Source: a bacterium (GTDB lineage Bacteria; Electryoneota; Electryoneia; Electryoneales; Electryoneaceae). Taken from it: 64,000 bases of DNA. The translations under genes and the position numbers were made by a program. This document shows, piece after piece, positions 3,021 through 63,031 of the stretch. The stretch covers positions 38,603-102,602 of the forward strand of contig JAIOHU010000194.1 of assembly GCA_019912845.1 (NCBI GenBank), written 5' to 3'. The stretch's first letter is position 1; every line of letters starts with the position of its first letter. Under the pieces are notes generated by a model. The model saw nothing but the letters and a program-made list of their open reading frames with translations. It searched no databases and had not been told where the DNA came from.

Positions 3021-3047
3021 TAAAGTTACTATCAATCAATCCGATAA
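3021..3047 (+). promoter_or_regulatory. Sigma-28 (FliA)-type promoter upstream of the flagellin gene
   Basis: TAAAGTTA, 11-12 nt spacer, then tCCGATAA. This is a near-perfect match to the TAAAGTTT-N11-GCCGATAA consensus, ~70 nt upstream of the flagellin ATG in an AT-rich leader. Confidence 0.5.
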
Positions 3048-3116
3048 AGTTAATGTCAGGGAACGAAATAAGTTCGCAAGAGATCTTAAGCCCTACATTA
3101 GCAAGAGAGGTATGTC

Positions 3117-3953: not shown

Positions 3954-3986
3954 TCGTAGCAAAGACGCTTGATCACGTCAGAATGG

Positions 3987-4026
3987 AAAACCTCATCCCT
4001 CTCAAAGGGATGAGGTTTTGTTTTCC
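3987..4026 (+). terminator. Rho-independent terminator after the flagellin gene
   Basis: 12 bp perfect stem AACCTCATCCCT / AGGGATGAGGTT with loop ctcaa, followed by a TTTTGTTTT run. Confidence 0.65.
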
Positions 4027-14229: not shown

Positions 14230-14410
14230 TTCATACTGGAGCGCCACACTCCAGTGTGGCAATTTCTTTGGCTTTTGACAAGTCCAAATTCAACCATCAA
14301 ACCATGCAAGTTGTTCCCCAAGCGGTGTTTTAGGGTCTTCTAAACTCCAAGAAATCCATAGTTTTATAGGTTTTTGCGTTGCCACGAACGGTTTAACCCT
14401 CACTGCTAAT

Positions 14411-14641
14411 TTACAGAAAACTGTTCAAAACATCTGTGCTCATATCAGCTTGGTGAAGTATGCTTTTCAGGGTTCCTTTTTTCAAGTCTTTATTGTGATA
14501 TGGAACGGTAACTGTAAGTTCTGGTCGTTCTGGATGAACCAGAGAGATGTGACTGCCTTGCTGATAGTCAACCTCAAACCCAGCTTTTCTAAGGGCACGA
14601 AGTAATTGTCTTGGTGTGATAACGGGAAGTTTTGGACTCAT
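14411..14641 (-). CDS. hicA: HicA toxin (YcfA-like mRNA interferase)
   Basis: 76 aa with PRQLLRALRKAGFEV...QGSHISLVHP, the hallmark of HicA/YcfA. Confidence 0.8.
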   Translation of the reverse strand: MSPKLPVITPRQLLRALRKAGFEVDYQQGSHISLVHPERPELTVTVPYHNKDLKKGTLKSILHQADMSTDVLNSFL

Positions 14642-14644
14642 CTC

Positions 14645-14881
14645 CTACACCGCCACTGCCAACTTATCGCGTAGTGGCATAGATTCTTGTATATCTTCAG
14701 GTATGGGTAATCCCCGTTTTATTAGTGATGCAATATGGCAACGGATTGCATCTTTTGCCATCTCTTTTGCTTCATCAAGGGTATCCCCTTCGGTGACCAG
14801 TCCCGGCAACGCAGGAATCGTGACAATATATCCGCCTTCCTCTGCCAGTTCAAAGATCGCCGTATATTCCTTTTCTACCAT
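14645..14881 (-). CDS. hicB: HicB-type antitoxin (UPF0150 fold, no DNA-binding extension)
   Basis: 78 aa, YTAIFE...EEGGYIVTIPALPGLVTEGDTLDEAKEMAKDAI pattern of HicB. Lies 3 nt upstream of hicA on the same strand. Confidence 0.7.
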   Translation of the reverse strand: MVEKEYTAIFELAEEGGYIVTIPALPGLVTEGDTLDEAKEMAKDAIRCHIASLIKRGLPIPEDIQESMPLRDKLAVAV

Positions 14882-14986: not shown

Positions 14987-15460
14987 ATCCACAATTTCCG
15001 CAATATCCGTGGGTGTTGCGGGAAAACCACAATAATTTGATCCCCTTGCGTAGAAAGATTTGCGTAGCCCTGCGATGTAGCGAAGCGAAACCCGGGGAAC
15101 AGAGGTGCCCTTAACTCAGGGTGGCCCGGGGATGAGAGCAATTCTACTCCACAAAGTGACGAATGTATAGACTTTCAAAACCCCAATATCATTTGTATTC
15201 ATACTCATCCCCGGGTTTCATTCTTTAAGGAGTGTCTCTCTCCAGTCTGGCTTGATCCACCCCGCGTCATGCCAGCATGCTTTTAGCTGGTATCCAGGAG
15301 TAAAATGAATATCCCCGTGTTCCGCAATATCCGAAGATGTTGCGGGAAAATCATTCATCCATTTTATAATAGAAGTGTGCAATTGAATTTGTCCCTTATA
15401 CCCGATGCAAAACATCGGGGCATCTTGGTGAATCACCCCAAGCCAAATCCCAAAAACATC
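14987..15460. repeat. Cluster of genome-specific intergenic hairpin repeat modules (D, CCGCAA hairpin, F and E modules)
   Basis: Module D (tgcgtagccc...gaagcgaaacccgggga...ggggatgagagcaattctact...catactcatccccggg) matches 45581-45730 and 45941-46090. The hairpin cccgatgcaaaacatcgggg matches 45792-45810. Module F at 15263-15299 matches 62995-63031. Confidence 0.6.
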
Positions 15461-15833
15461 ATTTATTTCCCGCAATTCATTGAATTTGTCACAATAGTAG
15501 TGGTATATATTAATGTAGAAACCAACTCGTGTGAAGTGTTCGTTCTGGTACGGGTAACTATTAGGGGGAAATCTTCTTTGTCTTCTATGAAAGGGGCTGA
15601 CACGCCCCTTTCGATCCCCAAAATGATCCAATCGGGTATTTTTGCTAAGATATTTAACGGGAATAAGCGCGATACCTGTAGCAAGCTACAGGTCATCCGT
15701 CGCGAATATTTAATTCGTTGAATGATATAGGATTTATATAAACAAGCCATTGACTTTATTGTGGATCAAGAGTAAACTATTTACAAGATTGCAAAGGATT
15801 ATTGGAATCAGTTATTATTTGCGGGGGTATTTT

Positions 15834-18800
15834 ATGAATCGGATCAAAAGAATATTCACAGTGATCTGCATCCTATTATCATTTGGCAGTAGTATGGCGC
15901 AGGATAGTCTGAACATTAGCATGCTGGGTAGTTTATACAACAATTGGGATCTATCTGCTGATCTTTTTATCGTCGATACTTTGGTGTTTATCGCAACAAC
16001 TGGTAGTGGTTTAAGGATTTTAGACATCCGTAATCCTGGTTCTCTTAATGAGCTTGGTTTTTGTTATACGCCGAGCAATGCCTACGATGTCGCAGTTGCT
16101 GGTGAATATGCATATATCGCAGATGGAAGCGAAGGGCTTTGTGTTGTTAACGTGAGTGATCTGGAAAATCCAGTAGTCGTTGGTTCATTCGATGAACCCG
16201 AGTGGGTTGAAGGTGTGGCAGTTCATGGAGGGTATGCTTACCTGACAGATTTTTATCAAGGAATGTGGATAGTTGATATCAGTGATCCGCAGAATCCTTT
16301 TCAGGTTAGCTATATAATTTCCCCCGATCATTCGCAGGATATCGCAGTTGTTGAAGATTACGCCTATGTCGCCATCTGGGATGAGGGATTATGGATAGTT
16401 GATATCAGTGATCCGGAAAACCCTGAAGAAGTTGCAACCCTCAGAACCCGTGATTCAGCTCGGGATGTTACTGTGTTTGACGGTTTTGCTTACATAGCTG
16501 ATAACGAAGCGGGTCTCTTTATCGCTGATGTAACTGATCCCGAAAATCCCATCGAAGTTGGCTCCTATGATACTCATGGTCGTACCAGAGGTGTAGCTGT
16601 CACAGAGAACTACTCATTTATCGCAGACAGTCGGGGAATGCGAGTGATTGATATCACCCAGTTGGAAAACCCTCTGGAGGTCGGATTTTACGATTCAATG
16701 TCTCGTACCACCAGCCTTGTCATCTCAGATTGGATCGCTTTTATTTCTGATGAGGTTGGTGGCCTTCGAGTTGTTAATGTACACGATCCTGAACAACCCA
16801 TTGAAATAGGCAGTTATGACACACCAGCATGGGCACGAGAGGTAGTGGTACAGGGAGAATATGCTTTTATCGCGCATGATGAAGGTGGGCTTCGAGTAGT
16901 TGATATAAGGAATGGAGAGAATCTGTTCGAAGCAGCATTCCTCACTTTTCGTCGACCAGCAATGAATATTGATTTGCAGGGGGATTACGTATATGTGGGT
17001 ACTTCTGATTGGGAGCGGGAAGAAGGCGGTCTTAGAATTGTCGATATCAGCAACCCAGTTGCACCTGATGAAACTGCTTTTTTCGATCTAGAAGAGGTGG
17101 TCAGTGATCTTGCAGTTTCAGAAGGGATCGCATTTGTCGCTACAAATGAAACTGATCTTCATATCTTGGATGTATCTGATCCCGAAAATCCATCAGAAAT
17201 CAGCCAACTTTACCTGCAGGGAAATGCTAGCAGTGTTGCAGTTGAAGGAAATTTTGCTTACGTCGTAGCTGCTGGTCTCAGGGTGGTTGATGTAGGCGAC
17301 ATTCAAAATCCTGTCGAAGTAGGGTTTTACAATCCGGTTGGCAACAATATTAGACATGTTGCTGTTTCGGGAGATATAGCTTACATTGCTGAGAGAGGTC
17401 TCAAAGTATTAGATGTCAGTAATCCAGAAAACCTCGTCGAAATTGGGGCGTTCAACGCACCAGGATCAATCCGGAATATTACTGTTGTAGACAGTTATGT
17501 GTTTGTCGCTTATTCCTGGAAACTTAGCACATCCGGTGGATGTCTACGTGTGATTGATGTCAGTGACCCAACACACCCAGAACAAACGGGATTTTACAAA
17601 ACTCCAGGTATTGCAAACAATGTTTGTGCCGTAAACCAGTTCGCTTATGTGGCGGATTCCTACCATTTTGAAGTTTATGACTGTTCCTATGCAATTGATT
17701 GGCCGGATACTGCCAGTGTATCTGGAATCGTAATTGATGAAGAAACCAGTGAGGTTATCTCCGGAGCTGTAGTGTCTTTCGATGAACATCAAACTTCCAC
17801 AAATGAAAATGGTGAATACAACTTCACCCTCCTTTCTCCTGATAATTATTCTGTAGATGCTTATGCTCTGGACTACGAACCATTTCATGCTGGAAGAGTA
17901 CAGCTTGAATCTGGGGAGAACACTTATAATTTTTCTATGCGAAAGAATGAAAGTTTAAATATCGAAATCCTCTCGATGATCGAGTCTCACTACTACAACG
18001 AAGCTGTGGCAATCGAAGGCGATTTTGCATATGTGGCGGATCAGGATTCAGGATTACGCGTTATTGATGTTTCTGATCCGCAATTCCCAAGAGAAATTGG
18101 TTTTTTTCCCGCAAATGACGCATTTCGCGGTGTCGTTGTGTCAAATGGTTACGCTTATCTTGCTGACCACGGAGCAGGATTTCGTATTGCTGATGTCAGT
18201 GATCCAGAAATTCCTGTTGCAGCAGGATCTCTTGCCACGCCAAACCGAGCAAATAAAGTCGTCGTAGAGGGAGATTATGCATACATAGCAAATACCTATG
18301 ACGGTTTGCGTATTGTCAATGTGAGTGATGCGGCAAATCCTGTGGAAATAGGTGTCTGCAATACACCTGACTGTGCGCTTGATGTAGTAGTCGGGGAAGG
18401 TTTCGCGTATATCGCGGATTATAATGAAGGTTTACGGGTGATCGATATTCATGATCCAGCAATTCCGGTTGAAATCGGCTATTTTACAACAGATGATGAA
18501 TGCGCAATTTGCGTTACTGTTGATGGGAATTATGCCTATGTTGGATATGGTATGGATGGGCTTCGCGTCCTTGATATTAGAAATCCGGCTAACCCTGTAG
18601 AAATTAGCCATTATCAAACACCGGGTCGTGTCTACTGCATCAAAGTTGTTGAAAACTTTGCTTTTATTGCTGATTTTTACGATGGATTAAGAGTGCTCGA
18701 TATCAGCGATCCCACCAATATTGCAGAAACAGGTTTTTATAATACGCCAGGAACAGCCCAATGGGTCGAAATTGAAGGTAACCTTGCGTATGTCGCTGAT

Positions 18801-19151: not shown

Positions 19152-19383
19152 GGTAAAAGCTGGCTCGGGGCTTTGGGCTTCTGGCTTTTAGAAGACTTTA
19201 ACACCCTTCTCAACATCAACTACATCAGTGCTGGCGCACTGAGTCTTGTCTGGTTCCCCGCCTACGCGGGGATGACGAGGCGGACAAGGCTTTGGGCTAT
19301 TGGCTTCGGTTCCGCACGCAACTTCTTCAGATGTCGCAGAACGAAGAGTAACTGGGAGGCACGATGTAAACGGAAAAAATTGC

Positions 19384-19600
19384 TTCCTGGATCCCGGCCC
19401 AACTCATCACCGGGATGACGCGGGGTGTGATGCCACACTGGAATAGATCGGCTTAGAATTTCAAGGGAATTATTAGACTTGGGATAAATCCCAAGCCAGA
19501 ATAAATGCCAAACTGGAGTGTGGCGCTCCAGGGCGGGGTGGTGTAGTCTTCTGCTCCCCGGGTTCCGCTGCGCTACACCACAGGGCTACACCAATCTCCC
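19384..19600. repeat. Intergenic repeat cluster: module A stem-loop, module B hairpin, module C, inverted module D
   Basis: Module A (19384-19440) recurs at 30061, 40090 and 48871. Modules B and C (19449-19531) recur at 48759-48946. 19552-19600 is the reverse complement of module D. Confidence 0.6.
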
Positions 19601-19777
19601 CGAGGCATAAAGTATGTAAACTTGAAATTATAGTCCATTTACTTGCTGTTACATTGATATTGTTCTAAATTGTACTCTAATGTGTCAGCGAAATACCTGG
19701 GGGTTGATTAAGGCTGTCAGTAATACTCCCTGCCCCGTTTTCGTTCATTTGGATACCTTACGGAATTGGAGTCCATC

Positions 19778-21919
19778 ATGATCTATCCTACTCGAAAAAT
19801 CCTGTTTACCATCTTCTGCCTCACTTCCCTTCTTATAAGTTCAACACTGCTTTTCGCACAGGAAGGCATAGAGCTGTTGTCAACCATTGAGAATGAATCG
19901 TGGGAACGTGTCTGGGATGTTACCTACGAGGACAATTTGCTGTATGTATGTGCCGCATCGGAAGGTATGTTTATTTATAATGTTGAGGATCTGGAAAACC
20001 CCGAATTATTGGGTGAGTTCACCACCGGAGCGACAATGAGGCAGGTGACAATCAAATCTGAATATGCCTATATCGCTGCCGCCAGTCAGGGGATGTATGT
20101 TGTGGATATCAGCACACCCACCAATCCCGTGTTGCGTTCTCAACTTGAAATCGACGAATTCACCTGGACAATTGATGTTCATGGCAACATGGCGTATGCC
20201 ACCGAGTTCGGTGATATCTATGCGATTGATATTTCCGACCCGGACGACCCGGAAATTCTATCTGTCATTGATGCACGTTGCTGTCAGAGGAAGGCACTGA
20301 TCAGGGATGGAATCTCTTACTCGCCATCCGAAAATTGGGGTTTCCAAACCATTGATGTTTCCGACATTTTCAATCCTGTTCAACTGGACATGGAACGTGA
20401 GTACAGTGGGACAGCGTATGATGTAGCGTTGCAGGGGGACTATGCTTATGTCGCATATGCACGACAAGGCATTCTCGTGTACGACATTTCCGATCCGTCA
20501 GATATCTTTGTCGCCGGACGAACCTGGGAATATAACAACATTTTCGGGATAGATGTTCAGGATGGGTATGCTTACTTTACCAATAGTTCAAATGGTATAT
20601 CTGTGCTGGATATCAGCAATCCTGTTGATCCTGCACCAGTCGGATCACATGATGTTGAGGGTGTAATATACGGACTCGCCATAAATCCACCCTATGCATT
20701 CATACCTGCAGGAAACACTGTATCAATCTTTGATTGTTCGGAAGCGATCGGTTATGATGACCAGGAAGAGGTAAACATCCCTCTTGCAACAAATCGTTAC
20801 GAACTGGTTTCCATGCCTCGTCTCCCCTTAGACCTCTTCGCAATCAACTTGTTCGAAGATATCCCCCATCTTGCTATCGTACAAAACGAGCAGGGGCAGG
20901 TTCATATACCTGACCTGATCGACGCCGATTGGATGGTGAATCCTACCGAAGCCTACATGATTTATACAAGCGAAGAGAGCGAATGGGTCTATACAGGTAC
21001 AACCATCCGTGCCGACCATGAGTTCAACCTCCAACCTGATACCTGGAATTGGATTGGCTATCCCTTCACTGACGAAATGCTGGTAGAACAAGCGATGGAA
21101 CCGATTTATGATGAGCTGGAAATTATTCTCAATGATGACGGTGAGATTTTCATTCCTGATCCGGATTTTAACATCAACACCATGGGGAATATGACACCCG
21201 GCGAAGGTTATCGTGTCTTTGTAAATGAGGAAGTCGACCTGGAGTATCCAGAGGAACTCGAACGTGCCGGAGCTTTTACAACGGAAAAATGGAATATCCC
21301 TGAAATTGAAGATACTCCTCATGCGACAGGTTTGCCCTGGGTTGTCCTGGTGACGCTGGACGAAAGTATGAAACAGCAGGCAGCGGTTATCGAACTCTAT
21401 GACGGCAACGTTTTGGTCGGCAGAGCTGCTGTGCTCGAAGACAAACCGGTCACGCCGGTAACAGCATGGCAGGCGATCCCGGAGCATGATATTCCAGGCT
21501 TTTTCCCCGGAAATCCGATCAGTGTGAAAGTGTTGGATGAAAGCGGTGAAGTCGTTGGTGAATCAGGGAGTGCAAACGTCAGCTCATCAGCTTTTGGTAA
21601 AGGTCCTTATGCTGAAATCACGGTATCTGCAATCGAGAATGAATCTGAACTCCCACTCGAACTTTCCATGGGCAAAGCCTATCCGAACCCGTTTAATCCG
21701 TCGATCACTGTTCCATTTACCCTGCCGGAAAAAATGGAAGTCAGTTTGAGTTTATACAATATCGTTGGGCAGCTGGTAGCGGAATTGAACCAGGGAGTGC
21801 TGGATCGAGGTCACCATGAATTGGTCTTCGAAGCTGTGAACCAGACTTCCGGTGTCTATTTCCTCGTCTTGAAAGCTGGCGAACATCACGCCATGCAGAA
21901 GGTGATTTTGTTGAAGTAG
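19778..21919 (+). CDS. T9SS cargo protein: N-terminal LVIVD beta-propeller, non-propeller C-terminal half, T9SS C-terminal domain
   Basis: Signal peptide plus LVIVD repeats, then a domain shared with the C-terminal half of the 51153-54188 protein. C-terminal domain AYPNPFNPSITVPFTLPEKM...VYFLVLKAGEHHAMQKVILLK. ATG at 19778; the listed ORF uses an upstream TTG at 19766. Confidence 0.8.
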   Translation: MIYPTRKILFTIFCLTSLLISSTLLFAQEGIELLSTIENESWERVWDVTYEDNLLYVCAASEGMFIYNVEDLENPELLGEFTTGATMRQVTIKSEYAYIAAASQGMYVVDISTPTNPVLRSQLEIDEFTWTIDVHGNMAYATEFGDIYAIDISDPDDPEILSVIDARCCQRKALIRDGISYSPSENWGFQTIDVSDIFNPVQLDMEREYSGTAYDVALQGDYAYVAYARQGILVYDISDPSDIFVAGRTWEYNNIFGIDVQDGYAYFTNSSNGISVLDISNPVDPAPVGSHDVEGVIYGLAINPPYAFIPAGNTVSIFDCSEAIGYDDQEEVNIPLATNRYELVSMPRLPLDLFAINLFEDIPHLAIVQNEQGQVHIPDLIDADWMVNPTEAYMIYTSEESEWVYTGTTIRADHEFNLQPDTWNWIGYPFTDEMLVEQAMEPIYDELEIILNDDGEIFIPDPDFNINTMGNMTPGEGYRVFVNEEVDLEYPEELERAGAFTTEKWNIPEIEDTPHATGLPWVVLVTLDESMKQQAAVIELYDGNVLVGRAAVLEDKPVTPVTAWQAIPEHDIPGFFPGNPISVKVLDESGEVVGESGSANVSSSAFGKGPYAEITVSAIENESELPLELSMGKAYPNPFNPSITVPFTLPEKMEVSLSLYNIVGQLVAELNQGVLDRGHHELVFEAVNQTSGVYFLVLKAGEHHAMQKVILLK

Positions 21920-22031
21920 ATCTGGCTATGAGACAAGTTTATGTGTTTTCATGAAGAAATTGCTTATATGTTAGTTAAGCATTTCTGAATGTAATTTTAA
22001 CACAAAATGTAAAGATAAGGCAGAAGGTATA

Positions 22032-24500: not shown

Positions 24501-27500
24501 ATGAGGAGATCAGTTTTGAAACTATTCACTGCGTTGTTAATGTCAATAATTCTTTTCTGCACAACAGCCTCTGTTTTTGGTCAAGACAGCTTGAACATAA
24601 ACATTATCTCCAGGCTGGATACTCCTGGATGGGCAAGAAGTATCGCAGTATCAAATGGACATGCCTTCGTTGCAGACAGTGCGAATGGAGTTCGAATTAT
24701 TAATGTTGAAGATAGGACTAACCCATGGCACGTAGGAGTATTTGACCCACTTTCTGAAGCATTTGAAGTGAATGTCTCCGAGGACATTCTCTATGTAACA
24801 ACTCGTTCCGGTGTTCACATACTGAGTTTGGATAATCCCGCAACCCCGGAAGAGATCAGTGTATACGAAAACGGACAATTTGGAACTATTCAAGTTCAAG
24901 ATGGGATTGCCTACCTGTCATATGGTCGGAACCTTAGAATTGTTGATGTGACGGATCCTGAAAATCCAACATTCATTTCTGATTGTGGGGTTGTAGCTTC
25001 TCCCCTTGGAATCGACATTTCAGAGGAATATGCCTATTTGGCGTGCAACAATGATGGTGGACTTAGGATTATTGATATCTCCGACCTCTTTAACCCCGTT
25101 GCGATGGGGTTCTATGATACCATTGGATGGGCGAATGATGTTGCGGTTGATGGTGATATCGCTTGTGTTGCTGATGGACCACGCGGTTTGCATTTGATCG
25201 ACATAAGCAATCCTGATTCTCCCCAATTAATCAGTAGCGTTGATTTGCCTGGCTATTCACGACGCGTTCAGATTATTCAAAATCACGCAATTGTAGCAGC
25301 GAGTGGCGGCGGGTTGCGAATCGTAGATTTCAGTGACCCTGAAGACCCCATGATAACAGGGTTCTACAGAACACCTGGCGGTGCAGAAAGTATATATGCA
25401 AAATCAATACGCTTATGTAGCTGATAATATTTATTTCGATATTTTCGATTGTTCCGATGCACTGCTTGATCCTGGACCTGCAAATGTTTTCGGTGTTGTC
25501 ACAGATAGCATTAATGCGCACCCAATACCAAATGCGACTGTTAGATTTAATCTAAACGAAACAGTTACTGATGAGAATGGAGAATATTCCCTGGTTGATT
25601 TGGAGTTTGGTGAATATAATATCAGGGTATCAGCAAATGGTTATCAAGATTTCATCCAGAACGGAGTATATATTTGGCCGGGCGATAATTTTTTAGACTT
25701 TGATCTACGTTATTCAGATAGTCTCAACATTAATATGTTGTGCCTATTGGATACTCCAGACAATTCACATGCTGTTGCTTTCAGTGATAGTTATGCCTTT
25801 ATCGCATCAGAAGAAGCTGGATTGGTTGTTGTCGATGTAAGTGACCCTGAAAATGCTACTGTCATAAGTACATTCGATACTCCAGATTGGGCAAATGGAA
25901 TTGATGTGGTAGATGGATATGCCTATGTCGCAGATGCAGAATCAGGTTTAAGAATAATAGATGTAACTGACCCTGAAAATCCTGCTGAGATTGGAGTTTA
26001 TAACACACCCGGTTATTGCCACGATGTAATCGTTATAGACAATATTGCTTATGTAGCTGATCGATTTGGTGGGCTCAGAGTTCTTGATGTAAGTGATCCT
26101 GCGCATCCGGTTCAAATTGGTGTTTACAACACAAATGACATGGCACATAGTATTGATTATTCTGATGGTTACGTGTATATCGGAAGCATTTATAGCAGAA
26201 TTCATATTATCAATGTTTCAGATCCCGCAAATCCCCAACAAGTAAGTTCAATTAATATGAACCGAACTGATGATATCACTGTCAGCCAAGGTTTCCTGTA
26301 TGTAGCTGCCAGAAGTGATGGTTTAGTAATATTTGATGTCACGGATCCTGCAAATCCGAGAGAGATGGGAAATTATGATGCGAGCGGTTCAGTCTCTGGT
26401 GTCGAGTATGTTGATGGATACGCATTCTTGACTGCTTCCTGGGCTGGTGGATTCCATGTTGTTAACGTATTCAATCCTGAAAATCCCTATCAGACAGGAT
26501 ATTATGATACCCCGGCACAAGCATTTGATGTGGTCGTTGAGGATAACCTTGCTTATGTAGCTGATTATCATAGTTTCCAAATTTATGATTGCACAGAAGC
26601 TACACCAGAAATATTACCAGCTTCGGTTTCAGGCAGAGTTAGTGATAGCGGAACTGATCAAGGGATTGTGCATGCTGAAGTAAGATTTGGAAATCGATCT
26701 GCATACACTGACCTTGATGGTAATTATCAACTCCACGATTTGGGGTCAGTGAACTATGATGTGAGAATTACTGCAACTGGATATCGTGGTTTTACACAGG
26801 AAAATTTCCAGGTATTGGAGGGTGAAAACGAGTTTAATGCAGTACTGATCTTGGATGACAGTCTAAATGTGAATCGAATTTCAATTTTAGAATCTCCACA
26901 AGTAGCACGAAATGTATTTGGAACAAGTGAACATCTTTTTATTGCAGATAGTATTGATGGACTCAGGATTTTCGATATATCGGATCCTGTGAATCCAAAT
27001 CAAATTGGAGTTACAGAAACTATCACAGGCGCCTGGGATGTTGAATTCATCAATATTACAACATTTGCATTATCCAGTTCCGATGGAATTCATATAATTG
27101 ATCCACAAATTAGGATGTCACCTGTTGAAGTTGGATTTATTGAAACTGCTGGAGACGCCTACGGTATCGAATCAATGGATCATTTCCTTTTAGTCGCCTC
27201 GGGTACAGATGGTTTGCTGATTATTGATGTGGCAGACAGGAATAACCCTGTGGTGGTGGGGTCGATAGAGACTACTGGTTTTGCCTGGGATGTTTCGGTT
27301 CAAGGAAATACCGCTCTGATTGCGGACGGTGCTGATGGAGGTGTCCGTCTGATTAATATTGAAAACCCTGCAGATCCTGTTGAAATAGGGTTTATTGTTA
27401 CTGAGGGATCGGCTCTTGGAATTGTAGTAGATGATGATCTTGCTTATGTCGCCGATGGAATAGCTGGATTGAAGATTATCGATATGAGTAACGTAGAAAT

Positions 27501-28053
27501 GCCAGCAATTATTGCGTCCTATGCTGTACCAGGCATATCAACCAATGTGTTTCTTGAAAATGGAGTTCTCTACCTTGCATCACAGTTTGCCGGTTTACGA
27601 ATTATTGATATAGAGGATCCTGAAAATCTGCATGAGAGCGGATACTACACGACTGAAGGGAATGCATTGGCAGTAGCGGCTCGAGAAGAATTCGCCTATG
27701 TCGCTGCGGGTGAATTTCTCGAAATTTACGATTGTTCCAGCGCGCTTGGCTGGAATCCTGTGCAAAACCGAACTGATCTTGTCCCACCTTCTACAATCGC
27801 TCTGGAGCCAGCCTATCCGAACCCGTTTAATCCGTCGATCACTGTGCCATTTACCCTGCCGGAAAAGATGGATGTACGTTTGAGACTGTACAATATCATC
27901 GGGCAGCAGGTGGCTGAATTAAATCAGGGAGTGCTGGATCGAGGTCACCATGAATTGGTCTTCGAAGCTGTGAACCAGACTTCCGGTGTTTATTTCATCG
28001 TGTTGGAAGCGGGTGAACATCAAGCCATGCAGAAGGTGATACTGCTAAAATAG
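24501..28053 (+). pseudogene. T9SS cargo LVIVD-propeller gene (~1180 aa if joined) interrupted by a +1 frameshift in an A4 run at 25400-25403
   Basis: ORF 24501-25424 (signal peptide plus first propeller) and ORF 25381-28053 (CarbopepD_reg, propeller, CarbopepD_reg, propeller, C-terminal domain) join seamlessly if one A is removed. The joined protein has the paralog pattern TPGxAxx...AYVADxxxxxIFDCSDA. The joined architecture matches the 15834-19151 paralog. Confidence 0.6.
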
Positions 28054-28121
28054 ATCAATATGCCGGATTAAAATAACTCTGTTGGGAATCAAATACTGCC
28101 GATTAATTCAGCGTAAAAATT

Positions 28122-30003: not shown

Positions 30004-30145
30004 AATTTTGCACGGAAGTCGTATTTATTTTGTCTAACATATTATAACATCAATTTCTTACTGGATCCCGGCCCAACACATCACCGGGATGACGCGAAGA
30101 AACGATACTATCGAGAACCTTACAACTTGAAGAGCAAGGATCATC

Positions 30146-37168: not shown

Positions 37169-37300
37169 GAATTAATTTGATACGTGGGAAGTTAGGAGTT
37201 AGTGTGTCGTCCAGAAATAGGTTGACAGTATTCCGCAACATCCGTAGATGTTGCGGTTGGGTAGCAACTGGATATTCTGAATAGATTATAAGACGGTAAA

Positions 37301-39884: not shown

Positions 39885-40324
39885 GCCGTCCAGTATTGAC
39901 AATCGGAATCACCGGCTTTATCGGAGGGTATCTCTGGAAAAACCATTGGATTGATTAATATTATCAGAGGGATTGGTGCTGGATTTATCCAGGGTGTACA
40001 CCTTCCTAGCTGTCCGAGAATGAAAATTTTAGATTATTCTGAAAAATTGCGGATATGTTATGTTTTCTAACATGTAATAATATCAACACCTTCCTGGATT
40101 CCGGCTCAACTCATCACCGGAATGACGAGGGCGATAGAACCAATATTTGAATTATTAAACTTTGGACAAGTCCAAAGCCAATAATCAAGGTGTGCGAGAT
40201 AGCCTGCTACGTCATCAGCCTTGCGCAAAGTATTTTGAAAACCCCTTTGCCTGGTATTGAAGCGTGAATTTGTAATGTCTACCTTCGATATCACAAATTG
40301 AGCCGATCACAAGGAATTTGAAAT

Positions 40325-45458: not shown

Positions 45459-46178
45459 GGAGCGCCACACTCCAGTGTAGCATTTTATATTCTGGCTTGG
45501 GATTTATCCCAAGTCTAATAAATCCATCGACGTATTTTTCAATGCTTTTATCTAAGGACTTCACCTCAGCGTGGTGAGATTTGCGTAGCCCCGACGTGCT
45601 GCGAAGCGAAACCCGGGGAGCAGAAGCGTCCTTCTCTCAGGGTGGCAAGGGGATGAGAGCAATTCTACTGATAAATAGCAATGAATTGAAAAACGTTTAA
45701 GAACTGAATTGTTTTTTGTATTTCATACTCATCCTCGGGTATTATTCATCCACTCTAAAATTGAAACTTGCACAAGAATTTGTCACTTAAACCCGATGCA
45801 AAGCATCGGGCCATCTTTGGAGCGGCACACTCCAGTGTAGCATTTTTTATTCTGGCTTGGGATTTATCCCAAGTCTAATAAATCCATCGACGTATTTTTC
45901 AATGCTTTTATCTAAGGACTTCACCACAGCGTGGTGAGATTTGCGTAGCCCCGAGGTGCAGCGAAGCGTAACCCGGGGAGCAAAGGCGTCCTTCTCTCAG
46001 GGTGGCCCGGGGATGAGAGCAATTCTACTGATAAATAGCAATGAATTGAAAAACGTTTAAGAACTGAATTGTTTTTTGTATTTCATACTCATCCCCGGGT
46101 ATTATTCATCCACTCTAAAATTGAAACTTGCACTAGAATTTGTCACTTAAACCCGATGCAAAGCATCGGGCCATCTTG
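45459..46178. repeat. Perfect-phase tandem duplication, 2 x 360 bp, of a composite intergenic repeat (modules C, inverted B, D, E)
   Basis: The sequence from 45459 (ggagcgccacactccagtgtagc...) recurs from 45819 with only a few substitutions. Copy boundaries are at 45459, 45819 and 46178. Confidence 0.85.
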
Positions 46179-46537
46179 GTGGAACGACGTACTCCAGAGT
46201 ATCCCCAAGCCACCCACAAAATAATATCATCTTTTTCCAGCAATTCATTGAATTTGTCACAATTATAATGGTATATTTTATTGCAGGCACCAACATCGTG
46301 TGATGTATTCGGTTTGCCGTACTTGTATATTTGACTGCTGGGGGAACCTTTCTGTGCTTCTGTGAAAGGGTGGCTGACACGCCCCCCTTTCGATCTCCCT
46401 CATCATCGAGAAGGTATATTTGTGAAAAACTCTCTCATAATCAATATGAGACCTGTAGTAAGAGCTACAGGCCACCCATCGTTTTCAATCACTCTCAACG
46501 CTCTCAGCAACACACTTAATTTAGGGGCTGCAATAGA

Positions 46538-48758: not shown

Positions 48759-48946
48759 CGGCTTAGATATTCAAGGGAATTATTAGACTTGGGATAAATC
48801 CCAAGCCAAAATACATGCCGCCCATGCGGAGAATGCTTGTCCATAATTCCAAAATCTACAATATCAATTGCTTCCTGGATCCCGGCCCAACTCATCACCG
48901 GGATGACGCGGGGTGTGATGACACACTATGGAGTGTGGCGCTCCAG
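48759..48946. repeat. Intergenic repeat cluster (modules B, A, C) between convergent genes
   Basis: Near-identical to 19384-19531 but with the module order changed. Confidence 0.6.
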
Positions 48947-48956
48947 TGTAAATGTT

Positions 48957-51152: not shown

Positions 51153-54100
51153 CTATCTTACGAGTACGATTTTCATAGATCTGCTTTCACCCTTGAAGCT
51201 CAAGGTTACGATATAGATTCCACTGACTAGATTGTTCGCTTGTTTCGTAGATTGAACCAGATATCGATTAACTCCCGCAGGGTAATGCTTTGATTCTTTG
51301 AACACAACTTGACCCTGAATATTATAGACAATCAAACTCACATCACCTTCACCAGGCAATGTGAAGGGAATTGTCACTGCTGGATTGAAAGGTTGTGGAT
51401 ATGGATTTGAGACTGTGAATTTCTCGGGCAAGTTGCTGTTGTTTGTATTCACGAGAGTAATGTGACCATAGGGATTACCGAAGTACTTTACCTGCTTACT
51501 CGTAGTTAAACTGTTACCTTCGTCATCCAGCCCACGAATGGTTACTGCTTCTCCTGTTTGTGCCCCAGTAAATTTGTCGGCGCTATTTTTTCCCCAGACA
51601 ACAAGCGGTACCAACGATTGTCCTTCCATCGGGATTGCACTACCAATCAGTTCGCCGTTCGTATTGCGCGCTTCCAGCAATGCGATACCATCCATCGATG
51701 ATTCTCCAGCCACTTCAACAAGGACAATCCATGGAATTCCCGTTGGTGAAACACCTGGCGATACTGCTGTGGGAAGAGGTTCGGCTATTGTCGTTCTTGC
51801 TAATTGTTCAGGTTGTGGATAGTTGAAGGTGATATCAGCATTGGCGAATACCATCAACCCGCGTCCTGGATGCATATCACCCAGCGTATTGATAAACCCT
51901 GGTATCCATGCCCCACCCTCAACGTCAGTTGCGATGATTATCGCACCTTCCACTTCAGCTAGAGCAGTGGAGGCATCGATGTTTTGCTGGTAAAGATGTC
52001 CCAGCCAGTTCCAGCGATTAGCAGCTAATGAATAGGTGAAATCCGTTGGTAGCTCTTCTCCTTGTACTACCCAGGCGGAAGGTTCTTCGCAGAACAATTG
52101 ATATGCCTCAGACAGGTCAACAGTACCAATGGTGTTGATACCCAATTCCGGAAGTAGAATTCCACCGTCATCATTTTGGGCGATATTAAGATTTTGAATT
52201 GATCCAAATACATCCTCCGCATTCAGGAATGCTGGTCTCACTGGGGAGGTAACCAGTTCATAAAATCTACTTCGCAATGGAAGTTCGAGTTGCTCATTAC
52301 CATGTTGACCATCCACTTCTATTGTTCTTACCGAAGCGACACGGATTTTTTCTGAGATTATTGCAAATTCTCCTGCTAAAGCAGTCTTTCTGATATTATC
52401 CCCACGTGCACGATGACCAATCATGATAGGTTCATCAGCATTTGTAACATCAAATACTTCTATTATAGTCTGATCTTGAGTAACCCATAGAGCACCGTTT
52501 TGATAGTCCAGATCAGCCACAAATGCAATGCTGGTTGGCTCAATTGTTGAACGTATCACTGGATCAGCCGGATTTGTTATGTCAATTACCCAAACGCCTT
52601 GTTGCAAGTTGCTGATATAGACTCTATCTGCTGACATGGTTATTGGACCATAAGGTCCTTCCAGTTCGAGAGATCCCACTAGCTGTGGATTCGTACGATC
52701 ATGAGTGTCATAAAGTAGAAGCCCATCTTCATCATCCAGGAAAGCAACCATCTCTCCGAACGTAGCAATTCGTCTGATGAAGGAAGGTGCCTGAATTTCT
52801 GCAATAATTTGATAACGCGGACCTGGAACAAGGTCATACACTTCTACCTGTTCTTCTGTGGATACAAACAATAACCCGTTGCCAATCGCATGTGAATGAA
52901 AAGCTTGGATTCCCCAGGAATACAATTGTTCGAGGTTATCCGGATGTGTAACATCAATTACACGCATCCGTCCGGAGTTTGACGAATACGATCCTGCGAA
53001 CAGATAATTATTGTAGTGATCAAATCCTGAAATTCTGTGATTCGTGTACCCGATTGAGTCTTGTTCCACAAGGTCCTGTGGAATTGAAATATCTATTGTT
53101 CGAATCGCATGGGTTTGATAGTCGTGCAAAAAAGCATAATTACCGATAATATCAATTTCCTTGACCAATCCAACTGTCAAATAACTTCCTGCAACTTGTG
53201 GATTATCCGGTGCTGTATAGTCGATCACATATAATCCAAAAGGACCTGAACCGTCCCAGAAGGCGAAATAAGCGTAACCATCCTTTGCCACAACACCTTC
53301 CCAGTAGGGACGGTAATATTCCTGATTTTCGAGCATTCCAATCAGGTTTACTGTTGGAGGCTCTGAGATGTTGACAACTGATATCTGGTGAGGTCCATCA
53401 GAAATGATCCCCATAGGATAGTCGATGGCCATCCCAAGTGCATGATGAGGATCATAACCTCCAATTCCAACTAAACTGATATTGGCAGGATCAGACACAT
53501 CAAATATCTGAACATCATCATCAGTTACATAAAGTAAATCATTGTGAAGTAATACTTCACAGGCATGACCAAGCGTTGCATTAATACTCGCAATTTCCAC
53601 AGGTGCATTAATTTCGGATATATCGTATACAAACAGATCACCATCCGTTGCTACATACAGATAAGGATAATCTGTTAGTAGTTCTGTCTGGCGACTCTCA
53701 GCTATCCTTCTATTGACAACAAGTTGAGGTACAGCGGGGACACTCACGTCATAAATTACTAAACCATCTTCGTAGGTAATCGCATAGTTTTCCCAGAGAT
53801 TTATATCCTTGATCCACGATACACTCTCAGGACCACGAAAGACATTTACAGGGTCATAGGGATTGCTGATATCGAATATCTCCAGACGGGACGAAACCAC
53901 ATAAAGCCATGGGAAATCAACTACAGGCGAACAGAAACCAGCTGCATTCTCTGTAAAAGCCACACTGATCCCGGAAGGATTTTCAGGATCACTTACATCG
54001 TAAAGATAAACATTTTCACCATGACCACCCTGGTATACGATTGTATCATTTTTCGTGATGTCATAAGTTCTATAGATACTGAAGAGTAAAGCATCAACTG

Positions 54101-54188
54101 TTGGTATATCCGGTTGTGCGTTACCAGGCAAAGGGAATAAAAGAGTGATATAGATAGACACGACCAAAATATTAAGAAGTATTTTCAT
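51153..54188 (-). CDS. T9SS cargo protein (~1011 aa): LVIVD propeller region, shared non-propeller domain, T9SS C-terminal domain
   Basis: Signal peptide (MKILLNILVVSIYITLLFPLPGNAQ) and LVIVD-type repeats. The middle domain is homologous to the C-terminal half of the 19778-21919 protein. C-terminal domain NPYPQPFNPAVTIPFTLPGEGDVSLIVYNIQGQ...KIVLVR. Confidence 0.8.
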   Translation of the reverse strand: MKILLNILVVSIYITLLFPLPGNAQPDIPTVDALLFSIYRTYDITKNDTIVYQGGHGENVYLYDVSDPENPSGISVAFTENAAGFCSPVVDFPWLYVVSSRLEIFDISNPYDPVNVFRGPESVSWIKDINLWENYAITYEDGLVIYDVSVPAVPQLVVNRRIAESRQTELLTDYPYLYVATDGDLFVYDISEINAPVEIASINATLGHACEVLLHNDLLYVTDDDVQIFDVSDPANISLVGIGGYDPHHALGMAIDYPMGIISDGPHQISVVNISEPPTVNLIGMLENQEYYRPYWEGVVAKDGYAYFAFWDGSGPFGLYVIDYTAPDNPQVAGSYLTVGLVKEIDIIGNYAFLHDYQTHAIRTIDISIPQDLVEQDSIGYTNHRISGFDHYNNYLFAGSYSSNSGRMRVIDVTHPDNLEQLYSWGIQAFHSHAIGNGLLFVSTEEQVEVYDLVPGPRYQIIAEIQAPSFIRRIATFGEMVAFLDDEDGLLLYDTHDRTNPQLVGSLELEGPYGPITMSADRVYISNLQQGVWVIDITNPADPVIRSTIEPTSIAFVADLDYQNGALWVTQDQTIIEVFDVTNADEPIMIGHRARGDNIRKTALAGEFAIISEKIRVASVRTIEVDGQHGNEQLELPLRSRFYELVTSPVRPAFLNAEDVFGSIQNLNIAQNDDGGILLPELGINTIGTVDLSEAYQLFCEEPSAWVVQGEELPTDFTYSLAANRWNWLGHLYQQNIDASTALAEVEGAIIIATDVEGGAWIPGFINTLGDMHPGRGLMVFANADITFNYPQPEQLARTTIAEPLPTAVSPGVSPTGIPWIVLVEVAGESSMDGIALLEARNTNGELIGSAIPMEGQSLVPLVVWGKNSADKFTGAQTGEAVTIRGLDDEGNSLTTSKQVKYFGNPYGHITLVNTNNSNLPEKFTVSNPYPQPFNPAVTIPFTLPGEGDVSLIVYNIQGQVVFKESKHYPAGVNRYLVQSTKQANNLVSGIYIVTLSFKGESRSMKIVLVR

Positions 54189-54399
54189 GTCCGAATCCTC
54201 TAAGTAGCAAGAGTTGGTCAAGGTGCGACTTACATCAGATTACATTATTAGCAATCAGTTTGCAAATGAATTCATGTCACTTTCTAAAAATCTCGCAAGA
54301 AGTCTCTCAGGGAAAGGACGCCAGGTGAGGAAAATACTGGATTTCCCCTTGAGAAAATCAAAAAAATAACGATACCTTTAGCGTTTGGAATTTGTGGAC

Positions 54400-62994: not shown

Positions 62995-63031
62995 CGCGTC
63001 ATGCCAGCGTGGGGTTAGCTGGCATCCAGGA
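62995..63031. repeat. Module F hairpin repeat (CATGCCAGC...GCTGGCAT), second copy
   Basis: cgcgtcatgccagcgtggggttagctggcatccagga matches 15263-15299. Confidence 0.5.

Follow-up and report, generated by a model that had tools for sequence, protein, structure and literature searches.

Within a 64,000-nt stretch of contig JAIOHU010000194.1 (assembly GCA_019912845.1, Electryoneota), here called the window and the source of all coordinates below, the genes beginning at 15834 and 46538 are preceded by related non-coding leaders, which we call copy A and copy B, respectively. Both copies lie 5' of, and are co-oriented with, a gene for an LVIVD-repeat beta-propeller protein that ends in a C-terminal sorting domain of the type IX secretion system (T9SS; Por_Secre_tail), and the two products are only 22-26% identical to each other. 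Protein searches returned no relative of the 46538 protein above 23% identity apart from itself, and generic LVIVD matches only for the 15834 protein. Other T9SS-tail genes lie at 19766, 22032, 24501/25381, 37301 and 51153 (minus strand), all except 37301 with LVIVD repeats; the rest of the genes searched in the window are housekeeping genes and a hicAB pair. The locus is also present in the Logan assemblies of SRR15661998 and SRR15661999. An AMP-binding gene that neighbours the leader has its closest relatives at 52-62% identity (protein search), among them Candidatus Electryonea clarkiae, a member of the Fibrobacteres-Chlorobi-Bacteroidetes (FCB) superphylum (PMC9324843).

An earlier note on this DNA had described the ~370 nt upstream of each of the two genes as homologous, and alignment of the two regions bears this out while moving the limits. 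By blastn 15350-15619 matches 46101-46398 (73% over 299 columns, E 4e-44), and with MAFFT the two copies remain alignable as far as ~15705/46485, at 74.7% identity in 348 ungapped columns; the homologous core is 15350-15705 in copy A against 46101-46485 in copy B, ~75% identical without gap columns. On the 5' side the homology reaches beyond 15461 into the modules M2 and M1, the latter matching 45929-46107 of copy B at 78%, and the whole shared non-coding stretch, consisting of modules M1, M2 and M3, comes to ~550 nt. The sequence CATTGAATTTGTCACAAT, which had been reported from both leaders, is indeed found in both on direct reading. On the gene side the final part of the region, 15706-15833, is unrelated to copy B, as the gene-proximal 128 nt (A) and 52 nt (B) give a global alignment z of -1.9.

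The leader region is non-coding. Mismatches between the copies have neither 3-nt periodicity nor third-codon-position bias, gap lengths run 16, 6, 2, 2, 2, 1 and onward, translated matches are short and jump between frames and strands, and no open reading frame (ORF) is kept in frame between the copies; the aperiodic mismatches, the gap lengths and the frame-hopping matches exclude a coding sequence or leader peptide. Conservation is patchy, with a variance of windowed identity of 6.85 against 2.72 +/- 0.64 in 5000 permutations (P<0.0002): islands that are 80-100% identical are separated by spacers that are near random. Counted as islands are the M2 box with its hairpin (90-95% identical), the 24-nt block GCAATTCATTGAATTTGTCACAAT with TGGTATAT and ACCAAC(A)TCGTGTGA after it, hairpin 1, TAT(T/A)TTTG and hairpin 2, the hairpins as such being 80-95% identical. 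Identity in the spacer that separates hairpin 1 from hairpin 2 hardly exceeds chance (P 0.11), and a small conserved island lies amid it (Table 1). M1 and M2 are conserved as well as M3. The fact that the islands are conserved and that repeat insertions lie only between them argues for selection on the islands rather than for a recent neutral copy.

Comparison of the two copies also favours reading the palindromes named in the earlier note as folded hairpins rather than as operators of a dimeric factor. The first palindrome occurs as reported, GGGGCTGACACGCCCC at 15593-15608 and GGGTGGCTGACACGCCCCCC at 46368-46387; its limits were drawn too narrowly, as it is really a stem of 9 bp in copy A and 11 bp in copy B, with 2 nt added symmetrically to each arm and pairing kept. 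The second is the 18-nt perfect palindrome CCTGTAGCAAGCTACAGG in copy A and, exactly as had been described, the variant CCTGTAGTAAGAGCTACAGG with a 6-nt loop in copy B; its 7-bp arms are constant and its spacer changes from CAAG (4 nt) to TAAGAG (6 nt). Since a variable spacer and symmetric growth of the arms are tolerated by a folded hairpin and not by a dimeric factor, transcription-factor operators at these two palindromes, one of the roles suggested for them, are disfavoured. The palindromes had been placed 100-250 nt before the start codon, which holds for copy A (142-245 nt from the ATG) and only in part for copy B (67-174 nt).

Together with the hairpin of M2, CCCGATG-CAAAR-CATCGGG, these make three hairpins that fold stably in A and B alike (-11.6 to -17.1 kcal/mol, z -3.9 to -5.1, with at most 1 of 200 shuffles as good); hairpin 2 accounts for -13.7 kcal/mol in copy A and -11.8 in copy B. 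Hairpin 2 and the M2 hairpin have a common oriented architecture on the gene strand, A-CC-N5-CAA..-N5'-GG-N-CAYC. They differ at three base pairs, in each case with a matching change on the opposite arm. No other perfect hairpin in the window has this form, and of 6 comparable hairpins that other loci (187 kb) contain, none has a CAYC-type tail. It is suggestive that this shared architecture is meaningful. A wider similarity between the M2 and hairpin-2 modules was rejected, as local alignment was no better than with shuffles and only the hairpin architecture is common to them. Hairpins 1 and 2 have the GC-rich stem-loop of an intrinsic terminator. The terminator scan found no U-rich tract (at least 5 T in 8) 3' of the stems and no terminator-like site in either leader, the hairpin tails reading TTTCGATC with TTTC being part of the stem; with the stem-loop present and the U-tract missing, the hairpins match an intrinsic terminator or attenuator only in part.

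At the centre of the leader lies a 24-nt block that is identical in both copies. In copy A it holds a 13-bp perfect palindrome, AATTCATTGAATT (15474-15486), and a second GAATTTGTCAC box (15482-15492). The palindrome, AATTCA-T-TGAATT, is unchanged in copy B (46242-46254), overlaps a putative -35 element TTGAAT and is the only element with the fixed spacing of a dimeric operator. It looks like an operator and is a plausible candidate for a repressor or activator site; the earlier note had not recognised it as such. The promoter-like match of copy B, TTGAAT-18-TGG-TATATT, is the sole plus-strand sigma70-like site in the 1.1-kb intergenic region (9/12, with TG extension). On the 3' side of the promoter-like site the block ACCAAC(A)TCGTGTGA includes TGTGA, the inverted partner of TCACA at 15488-15492. 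Mirror sites lie on the minus strand, TTCACA-17-TAATAT in copy A (15535 to 15507) and ATCACA-18-TAAAAT in copy B (46304 to 46275). Elsewhere in the window there are sigma70-like -35/-10 pairs, a sigma28-like flagellin promoter and a canonical terminator, and these ordinary signals make a standard promoter architecture plausible for this organism. The flagellin gene (signals at 3040-3116 and 3954-4020) has the sigma28-like TAAAG-N15-CCGATAA on its 5' side and the terminator, a GC-stem with a T-run, on its 3' side.

Further upstream, M1 of copy A has a long-range stem between CCCGGGGATGAG (15125-15136) and CTCATCCCCGGG (15204-15215), and M2 carries an additional GAATTTGTC box and the third hairpin, of which copy B holds an older tandem copy at 45792-45810. 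Insertions resembling repetitive extragenic palindromic (REP) elements are found only between the conserved islands: a 127-nt insert in copy A, bordered by the direct repeat TCATTC and missing from copy B, and, in copy B, a degenerate GGAGCG..CTCCAG element within the loop of a CTTGG/CCAAG stem. In the alignment a 16-nt insertion specific to copy B sits in that same loop. These REP-like repeats entered both leaders after the copies diverged. In copy B, M1 and M2 also form part of a tandem duplication of a 360-nt unit in the intergenic DNA that follows the AMP-binding gene. Each unit comprises M1, M2 and a REP-like head, with M1 at 45569-45747 and 45929-46107. The duplication probably came from unequal exchange between two copies of the REP-like element GGAGCGCCACACTCCAGTGTGGC. 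Logan contig L016 ends 64 nt into it; L016 and L021, both obtained by window-protein look-ups, are short and end at the repeats, and the other look-ups of this kind gave no match.

Table 1. Positions of the leader elements of copies A and B and of the genes they precede (window coordinates)
Feature	Positions	Strand	Basis
LVIVD-repeat protein with T9SS C-terminal sorting domain (Por_Secre_tail), 1105 aa	15834..19151	+	Pfam
LVIVD-repeat protein with T9SS C-terminal sorting domain (Por_Secre_tail), 735 aa	46538..48745	+	Pfam
M1, copy A; 34-nt run identical to B, CTCAGGGTGGCCCGGGGATGAGAGCAATTCTACT	15048..15223	+	blastn, alignment
127-nt insert made of REP-like hairpin modules, copy A only, separating M1 from M2	15225..15351	+	alignment, sequence inspection
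M2, copy A; box GAATTTGTCCC (15385-15395), hairpin CCCGATG-CAAAA-CATCGGG (15401-15419)	15350..15430	+	repeat and motif search, fold
M2, copy B; box GAATTTGTCAC (46136-46146), hairpin CCCGATG-CAAAG-CATCGGG (46152-46170)	46101..46181	+	motif search, fold
Two tandem 360-nt units, 45459-45818 and 45819-46178, 95% identical	45459..46178	+	repeat search, blastn
24-nt block identical in both copies, GCAATTCATTGAATTTGTCACAAT	15472..15495	+	alignment, motif search
Promoter-like site, copy A: TTGAAT - 18 nt - TGG TATATA	15480..15509	+	alignment with B site
24-nt block (46240-46263) and promoter-like TTGAAT-18-TGG TATATT (46248-46277), copy B	46240..46277	+	promoter scan
Conserved block ACCAAC(A)TCGTGTGA 3' of the promoter-like site	15521..15534	+	alignment, motif search
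Hairpin 1, copy A: GAAAGGGGC-TGACAC-GCCCCTTTC, -17.1 kcal/mol; followed by GATC, no U-run	15589..15612	+	inverted-repeat search, fold
Hairpin 1, copy B: GAAAGGGTGGC-TGACAC-GCCCCCCTTTC, 11-bp stem with one mismatch, -16.7 kcal/mol	46364..46391	+	fold
Small conserved island TATTTTTG (copy B: TATATTTG, 46415-46422) amid near-random spacer	15638..15645	+	alignment
Hairpin 2, copy A: CCTGTAG-CAAG-CTACAGG, conserved 3' tail TCATCCGTCG	15675..15692	+	inverted-repeat search, fold
Hairpin 2, copy B: CCTGTAG-TAAGAG-CTACAGG	46452..46471	+	fold
A-specific proximal segment without homology to B; own promoter-like TTGACT-17-TAAACT at 15750-15778	15706..15833	+	promoter scan, alignment

Further copies of the palindromes, which the earlier note had suggested looking for, were found neither in the window nor at five AMP-binding loci nor in exact-motif scans of public collections. 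Fuzzy searches placed the leader hairpins only in the two leader loci of the 64 kb and in a single orientation, and nhmmer profiles of M2-M3 and of M1 gave no extra copy in the window or in any fetched locus; one partial inverted piece of M1 was seen in the window at 19547-19601. The leader is missing from all five fetched loci that contain the neighbouring AMP-binding gene: L016 of the source organism and four loci of three relatives (57-62% identical). The four loci of the relatives keep the upstream order Fpg, Cu-oxidase_4, ComM-like Mg-chelatase and AMP-binding gene and are without an LVIVD gene or any repeat. In the GTDB representative genomes an exact 18-mer gave 14 single matches in unrelated taxa, with ~17 expected by chance, and no other leader sequence; in JGI metagenomes an exact 20-mer gave one match, in coding-looking DNA with no further similarity; and in viral contigs the patterns of hairpin 1 and the M2 hairpin had zero matches. 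Searching the whole window against Rfam returned nothing at the gathering threshold, the best permissive leader matches (E 1.3-7.4) being far below it. Pfam runs on 29 of the 34 larger window ORFs revealed no transposase, recombinase or NusG domain and no RAYT, tnpA or TnpB gene, and those on window ORFs showed no regulator gene adjacent to the leaders. The literature on LVIVD proteins with T9SS and on T9SS leaders held nothing relevant that we could find.

We tentatively favour reading M1-M2-M3 as a paralogous, lineage-specific promoter and structured leader of two LVIVD/T9SS genes in an uncultured FCB-related bacterium, though with confidence that falls somewhat short of even. According to this proposal, which is drawn from sequence, the invariant block would be a sigma70-type promoter with an extended -10 (TTGAAT-N18-TGG-TATATW), gated by the 13-bp palindrome over its -35, to which a repressor or an activator might bind. 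Transcription of the plus strand is predicted to start near 15517 in copy A and 46285 in copy B, which would give 5' untranslated regions (UTRs) of ~320 and ~250 nt, respectively, in which hairpins 1 and 2 may act as RNA: by attenuation or pausing, through transcript stability or processing, or as protein-binding sites. M1 and M2, with their second GAATTTGTC box and further hairpins, may insulate or modulate the promoter or may be transcribed divergently from the minus-strand mirror promoter. A structured 5' UTR shared by the two genes had been the other half of the regulatory role suggested in the earlier note, and it fits the co-oriented LVIVD/T9SS genes, the non-coding nature of the leader, the conserved hairpins and the promoter-like block. 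The leader is somewhat richer than had been described, and with only two copies found its regulatory function is putative. In a bolder form M1-M3 would be an undescribed ~550-nt class of regulatory RNA or leader controlling a subset of T9SS-exported LVIVD surface proteins, which would build on the duplicated oriented hairpin motif A-CC-N5-CAA..-N5'-GG-N-CAYC and on a palindrome-gated bidirectional promoter; this we consider quite unlikely.

Several observations weigh against a promoter and structured leader. The leader is absent before all the other T9SS-tail genes of the window listed above, and this, together with the 22-26% identity of the two proteins, leaves co-regulation of a cargo subfamily, as it had been put, unsupported. 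Only two independent copies are known, and there is no between-species covariation. The -10 of copy A, TATATA, lacks the conserved final T and its site was not called by the promoter scan, copy A has a proximal promoter-like site of its own in the non-homologous segment (Table 1), and the minus strand of both copies has a promoter-like site that is just as good, its -10 region overlapping that of the plus-strand site. The homology stops ~13 nt past hairpin 2, which is 128 nt (A) or 52 nt (B) short of the ATG, and M1 and the M2 hairpin lie 5' of the proposed start, leaving ~430 nt of conserved sequence that a 5' UTR does not account for. No global RNA fold emerged, as RNAalifold gave local hairpins only, with 2-4 compensated pairs on either strand, and the fold of the whole UTR has a z of -3.2 in copy A and an unremarkable -1.1 in copy B. 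Finally, the leader region is embedded in a mosaic of dispersed hairpin repeats, one of which is resembled by the leader piece CTTGG..CCCAAGCCA.

This last point bears on a rather different explanation, in which the shared stretch is a selfish or neutral repeat, either a low-copy element like REP or bacterial interspersed mosaic elements (BIMEs) or one of the IS200/IS605 type (a palindrome-associated transposable element, PATE), copied or converted between the loci after the genes had diverged; its hairpins would be single-stranded transposase targets and would have no part in gene control. We regard this as somewhat unlikely, but as the most serious competitor of the promoter and leader. Dispersed hairpin families crowd the intergenic regions of the window in both orientations and have been inserted into both leaders, Logan assemblies break at these repeats, and the 3' flanks of the 15834 and 46538 genes share repeats at 89-98% where the coding sequences are ~24% identical. 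The sharp end of the homology ~13 nt past hairpin 2, and two similar, oriented hairpins on the same strand without terminal inverted repeats or target duplications, agree with the IS200/IS605 pattern. However, no third copy of the M2-M3 blocks lies in the 64 kb on either strand, where true dispersed families recur 3-6 times, and the divergence between the copies is strongly non-uniform, which is unexpected for a neutral copy. The homology also runs >200 nt to the left of what would be the left-end hairpin, the two copies are placed and oriented alike with respect to genes of one family, and the Pfam runs gave no transposase, RAYT or TnpB. Three more specific assignments were considered. Within the 64 kb the leader hairpins, confined to two leaders and one orientation, lack the many dispersed copies in both orientations that mark REP/BIME repeats and that other families of the window show; a miniature inverted-repeat transposable element was dismissed because the only boundary inverted repeat (15350-15364 / 15712-15726, 80%) is in copy A and not in copy B and there is no target-site duplication; and an inverton was dismissed because the sole inverted repeat to flank the block in A and B alike is the 5-bp TCACA/TGTGA and Pfam found no recombinase in the 29 larger ORFs.

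The promoter-like sites on both strands, which have overlapping -10 regions and are conserved in both copies, would also suit a core that encodes one or more independent small RNAs, an explanation that we find unlikely. One candidate would be a ~100-nt plus-strand RNA that begins at the promoter-like block and ends at hairpin 1, which would serve as a U-poor terminator, and another a divergent minus-strand RNA over M2-M1, made from the mirror-image half of a symmetric bidirectional promoter. Hairpin 1 does stand ~75-80 nt past the putative plus-strand start and has the A-tract/GC stem/T-tract shape that is seen after gene 25381-28053, and the conservation of M1 and M2, equal to that of M3, is not accounted for by a simple promoter. 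Against this, hairpin 1 has only UUUCGAUC after its stem and failed the terminator scan, Rfam contributed no family match, and the folds of M1-M2 are not exceptional (z -0.4 to -2.4). Highly improbable, in our judgement, is that the GC-rich palindromes are double-stranded DNA operators of a dimeric transcription factor. In their favour, both copies keep them as perfect or near-perfect inverted repeats, yet the spacing of their half-sites varies (4 against 6 nt in palindrome 2) as do their arms (9 against 11 bp in palindrome 1), they lie 75-180 nt 3' of the only conserved promoter-like block, and no regulator gene adjoins them in the Pfam runs.

The proposed promoter and leader can be set beside several known systems. 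Antiterminators of the NusG family (RfaH with the operon polarity suppressor (ops) element/JUMPStart, UpxY of Bacteroides, and LoaP with its leader hairpins) read long 5' leaders of surface-structure operons. The leaders described here are similar in being several hundred nt long, in recurring within one genome at paralogous loci for large products that are exported or lie at the surface, and in carrying short conserved sequence and hairpin elements well 5' of the start codon. Unlike RfaH-type leaders, they have no ops-like motif, Pfam detected no NusG domain in the 29 larger ORFs, and their transcription is only putative; the ops element GGCGGTAG(nnTG) is absent from both leaders on both strands (8-mer with up to 1 mismatch, 12-mer with up to 3), which rules out an ops/JUMPStart leader. 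As with REP/BIME elements, including REP doublets (REPINs), there are short GC-rich intergenic hairpins in mosaics, and the neighbourhood holds such families, but the leader hairpins occur in only two loci of the 64 kb, in one orientation, 5' of genes and in a collinear ~550-nt unit, with no RAYT among the ORFs searched. With PATEs of IS200/IS605 the leaders have in common two similar same-strand subterminal hairpins, the lack of terminal inverted repeats and target-site duplication, and a sharp right boundary ~13 nt past a hairpin; they differ in homology that extends far past the left hairpin, in copies that are 25% diverged in a patchy manner, and in the lack of tnpA/tnpB among the ORFs searched. 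A promoter-like block followed at ~75-80 nt by a stable GC-rich hairpin before a gene recalls intrinsic-terminator attenuators and riboswitch leaders, from which the present leaders differ in having no U-run, conserved anti-terminator pairing, leader peptide or Rfam match. Symmetric bidirectional promoters with overlapping -10 elements have been described in E. coli and other bacteria. Here too hexamers on both strands share an AT-rich -10, TCACA/TGTGA are inverted flanks and the predicted starts are ~17 bp apart, but these are consensus matches only and the plus-strand -10 of copy A is without its final T.

The surroundings of the leaders gave a number of further observations. The intergenic DNA of the window is full of dispersed hairpin repeat families in both orientations. 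One REP-like family, with flanks CCTGGAT ... ATGACGCG, is found at 19387-19420, 30061-30094, 40094-40127 and 48875-48908 on the plus strand and at 15265-15297 and 62997-63029 on the minus strand; its stem covaries between copies (ATCCCGG/CCGGGAT, ATTCCGG/CCGGAAT, GCCAGC/GCTGGC), and it lies mostly 3' of genes, with one copy within the A-specific leader insert. A solitary hairpin at 19255-19285, CTGGTTCCCCGCCTACGCGGGGATGACGAGG, has a shape like that of a type I-E repeat of clustered regularly interspaced short palindromic repeats (CRISPR); its flanks place it in the CCTGGAT...ATGACG family, and there is no array. The element GGAGCGCCACACTCCAGTGTGGC is present at 14238-14265, 45459-45486 and 45819-45846 (plus) and at ~19513-19531 and ~48930-48947 (minus), with degenerate copies at 15229-15256 and ~46181-46205. 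It can form two overlapping possible hairpins, sits directly after stop codons and inside both leaders, and often has the perfect palindrome CTTGGGAT-TT-ATCCCAAG after it (45496-45513 and 45856-45873; inverted near 19470 and 48790).

Two other motifs occur near T9SS-tail genes. The palindrome CCGCAAyATCCG-N-rTGTTGCGG is present three times, at 14998-15021 and 15322-15345, both in leader A, and at 37233-37256, where it overlaps a TTGACA -35-like hexamer just 5' of the T9SS-tail gene 37301; in both leaders, its half-site TTCC(C)GCAAT stands 5' of the invariant block as well. This palindrome could represent an operator family for T9SS cargo genes. At ~54250-54290, 5' of the minus-strand LVIVD gene 51153-54221, GTGACATGAATTCATTTGC adjoins a promoter-like site, TTGCAA-17-TAATCT. 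It resembles the leader box and palindrome (GTGACAAATTCAATGAATTGC) on the opposite strand, and may be an AT-rich chance match. Among the genes, the hicA/hicB toxin-antitoxin pair at 14411-14881 (minus strand; HicA_toxin E 1.8e-21, HicB_lk_antitox E 6.5e-11) is situated on the strand opposite to leader A, which it separates from an Omp85-family gene. The overlapping ORFs 24501-25424, with signal peptide and repeats, and 25381-28053, with repeats and sorting tail, jointly resemble one LVIVD/T9SS gene, which suggests a frameshift, a pseudogene or a sequencing error. The sorting-domain 3' ends of two LVIVD genes, 21676-21922 and 27810-28056, are 89% identical in DNA where the remainder is far more diverged, suggesting gene conversion or a recent exchange of tails.

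What the leader means for this organism depends on which explanation is correct. If it is a low-copy, hairpin-ended repeat, it would be one more sign that this genome is unusually rich in REP-like mobile hairpins, a routine result. If it is regulatory, the two copies would provide a clean within-genome footprint, with islands, saturated spacers and repeats tolerated between the islands, that could seed a covariance model when further genomes of the lineage become available. To our knowledge, no regulators or cis-elements of T9SS-exported beta-propeller proteins are known in such lineages, and a regulatory leader would be the first handle on the control of these abundant surface proteins in an uncultured FCB-related lineage.

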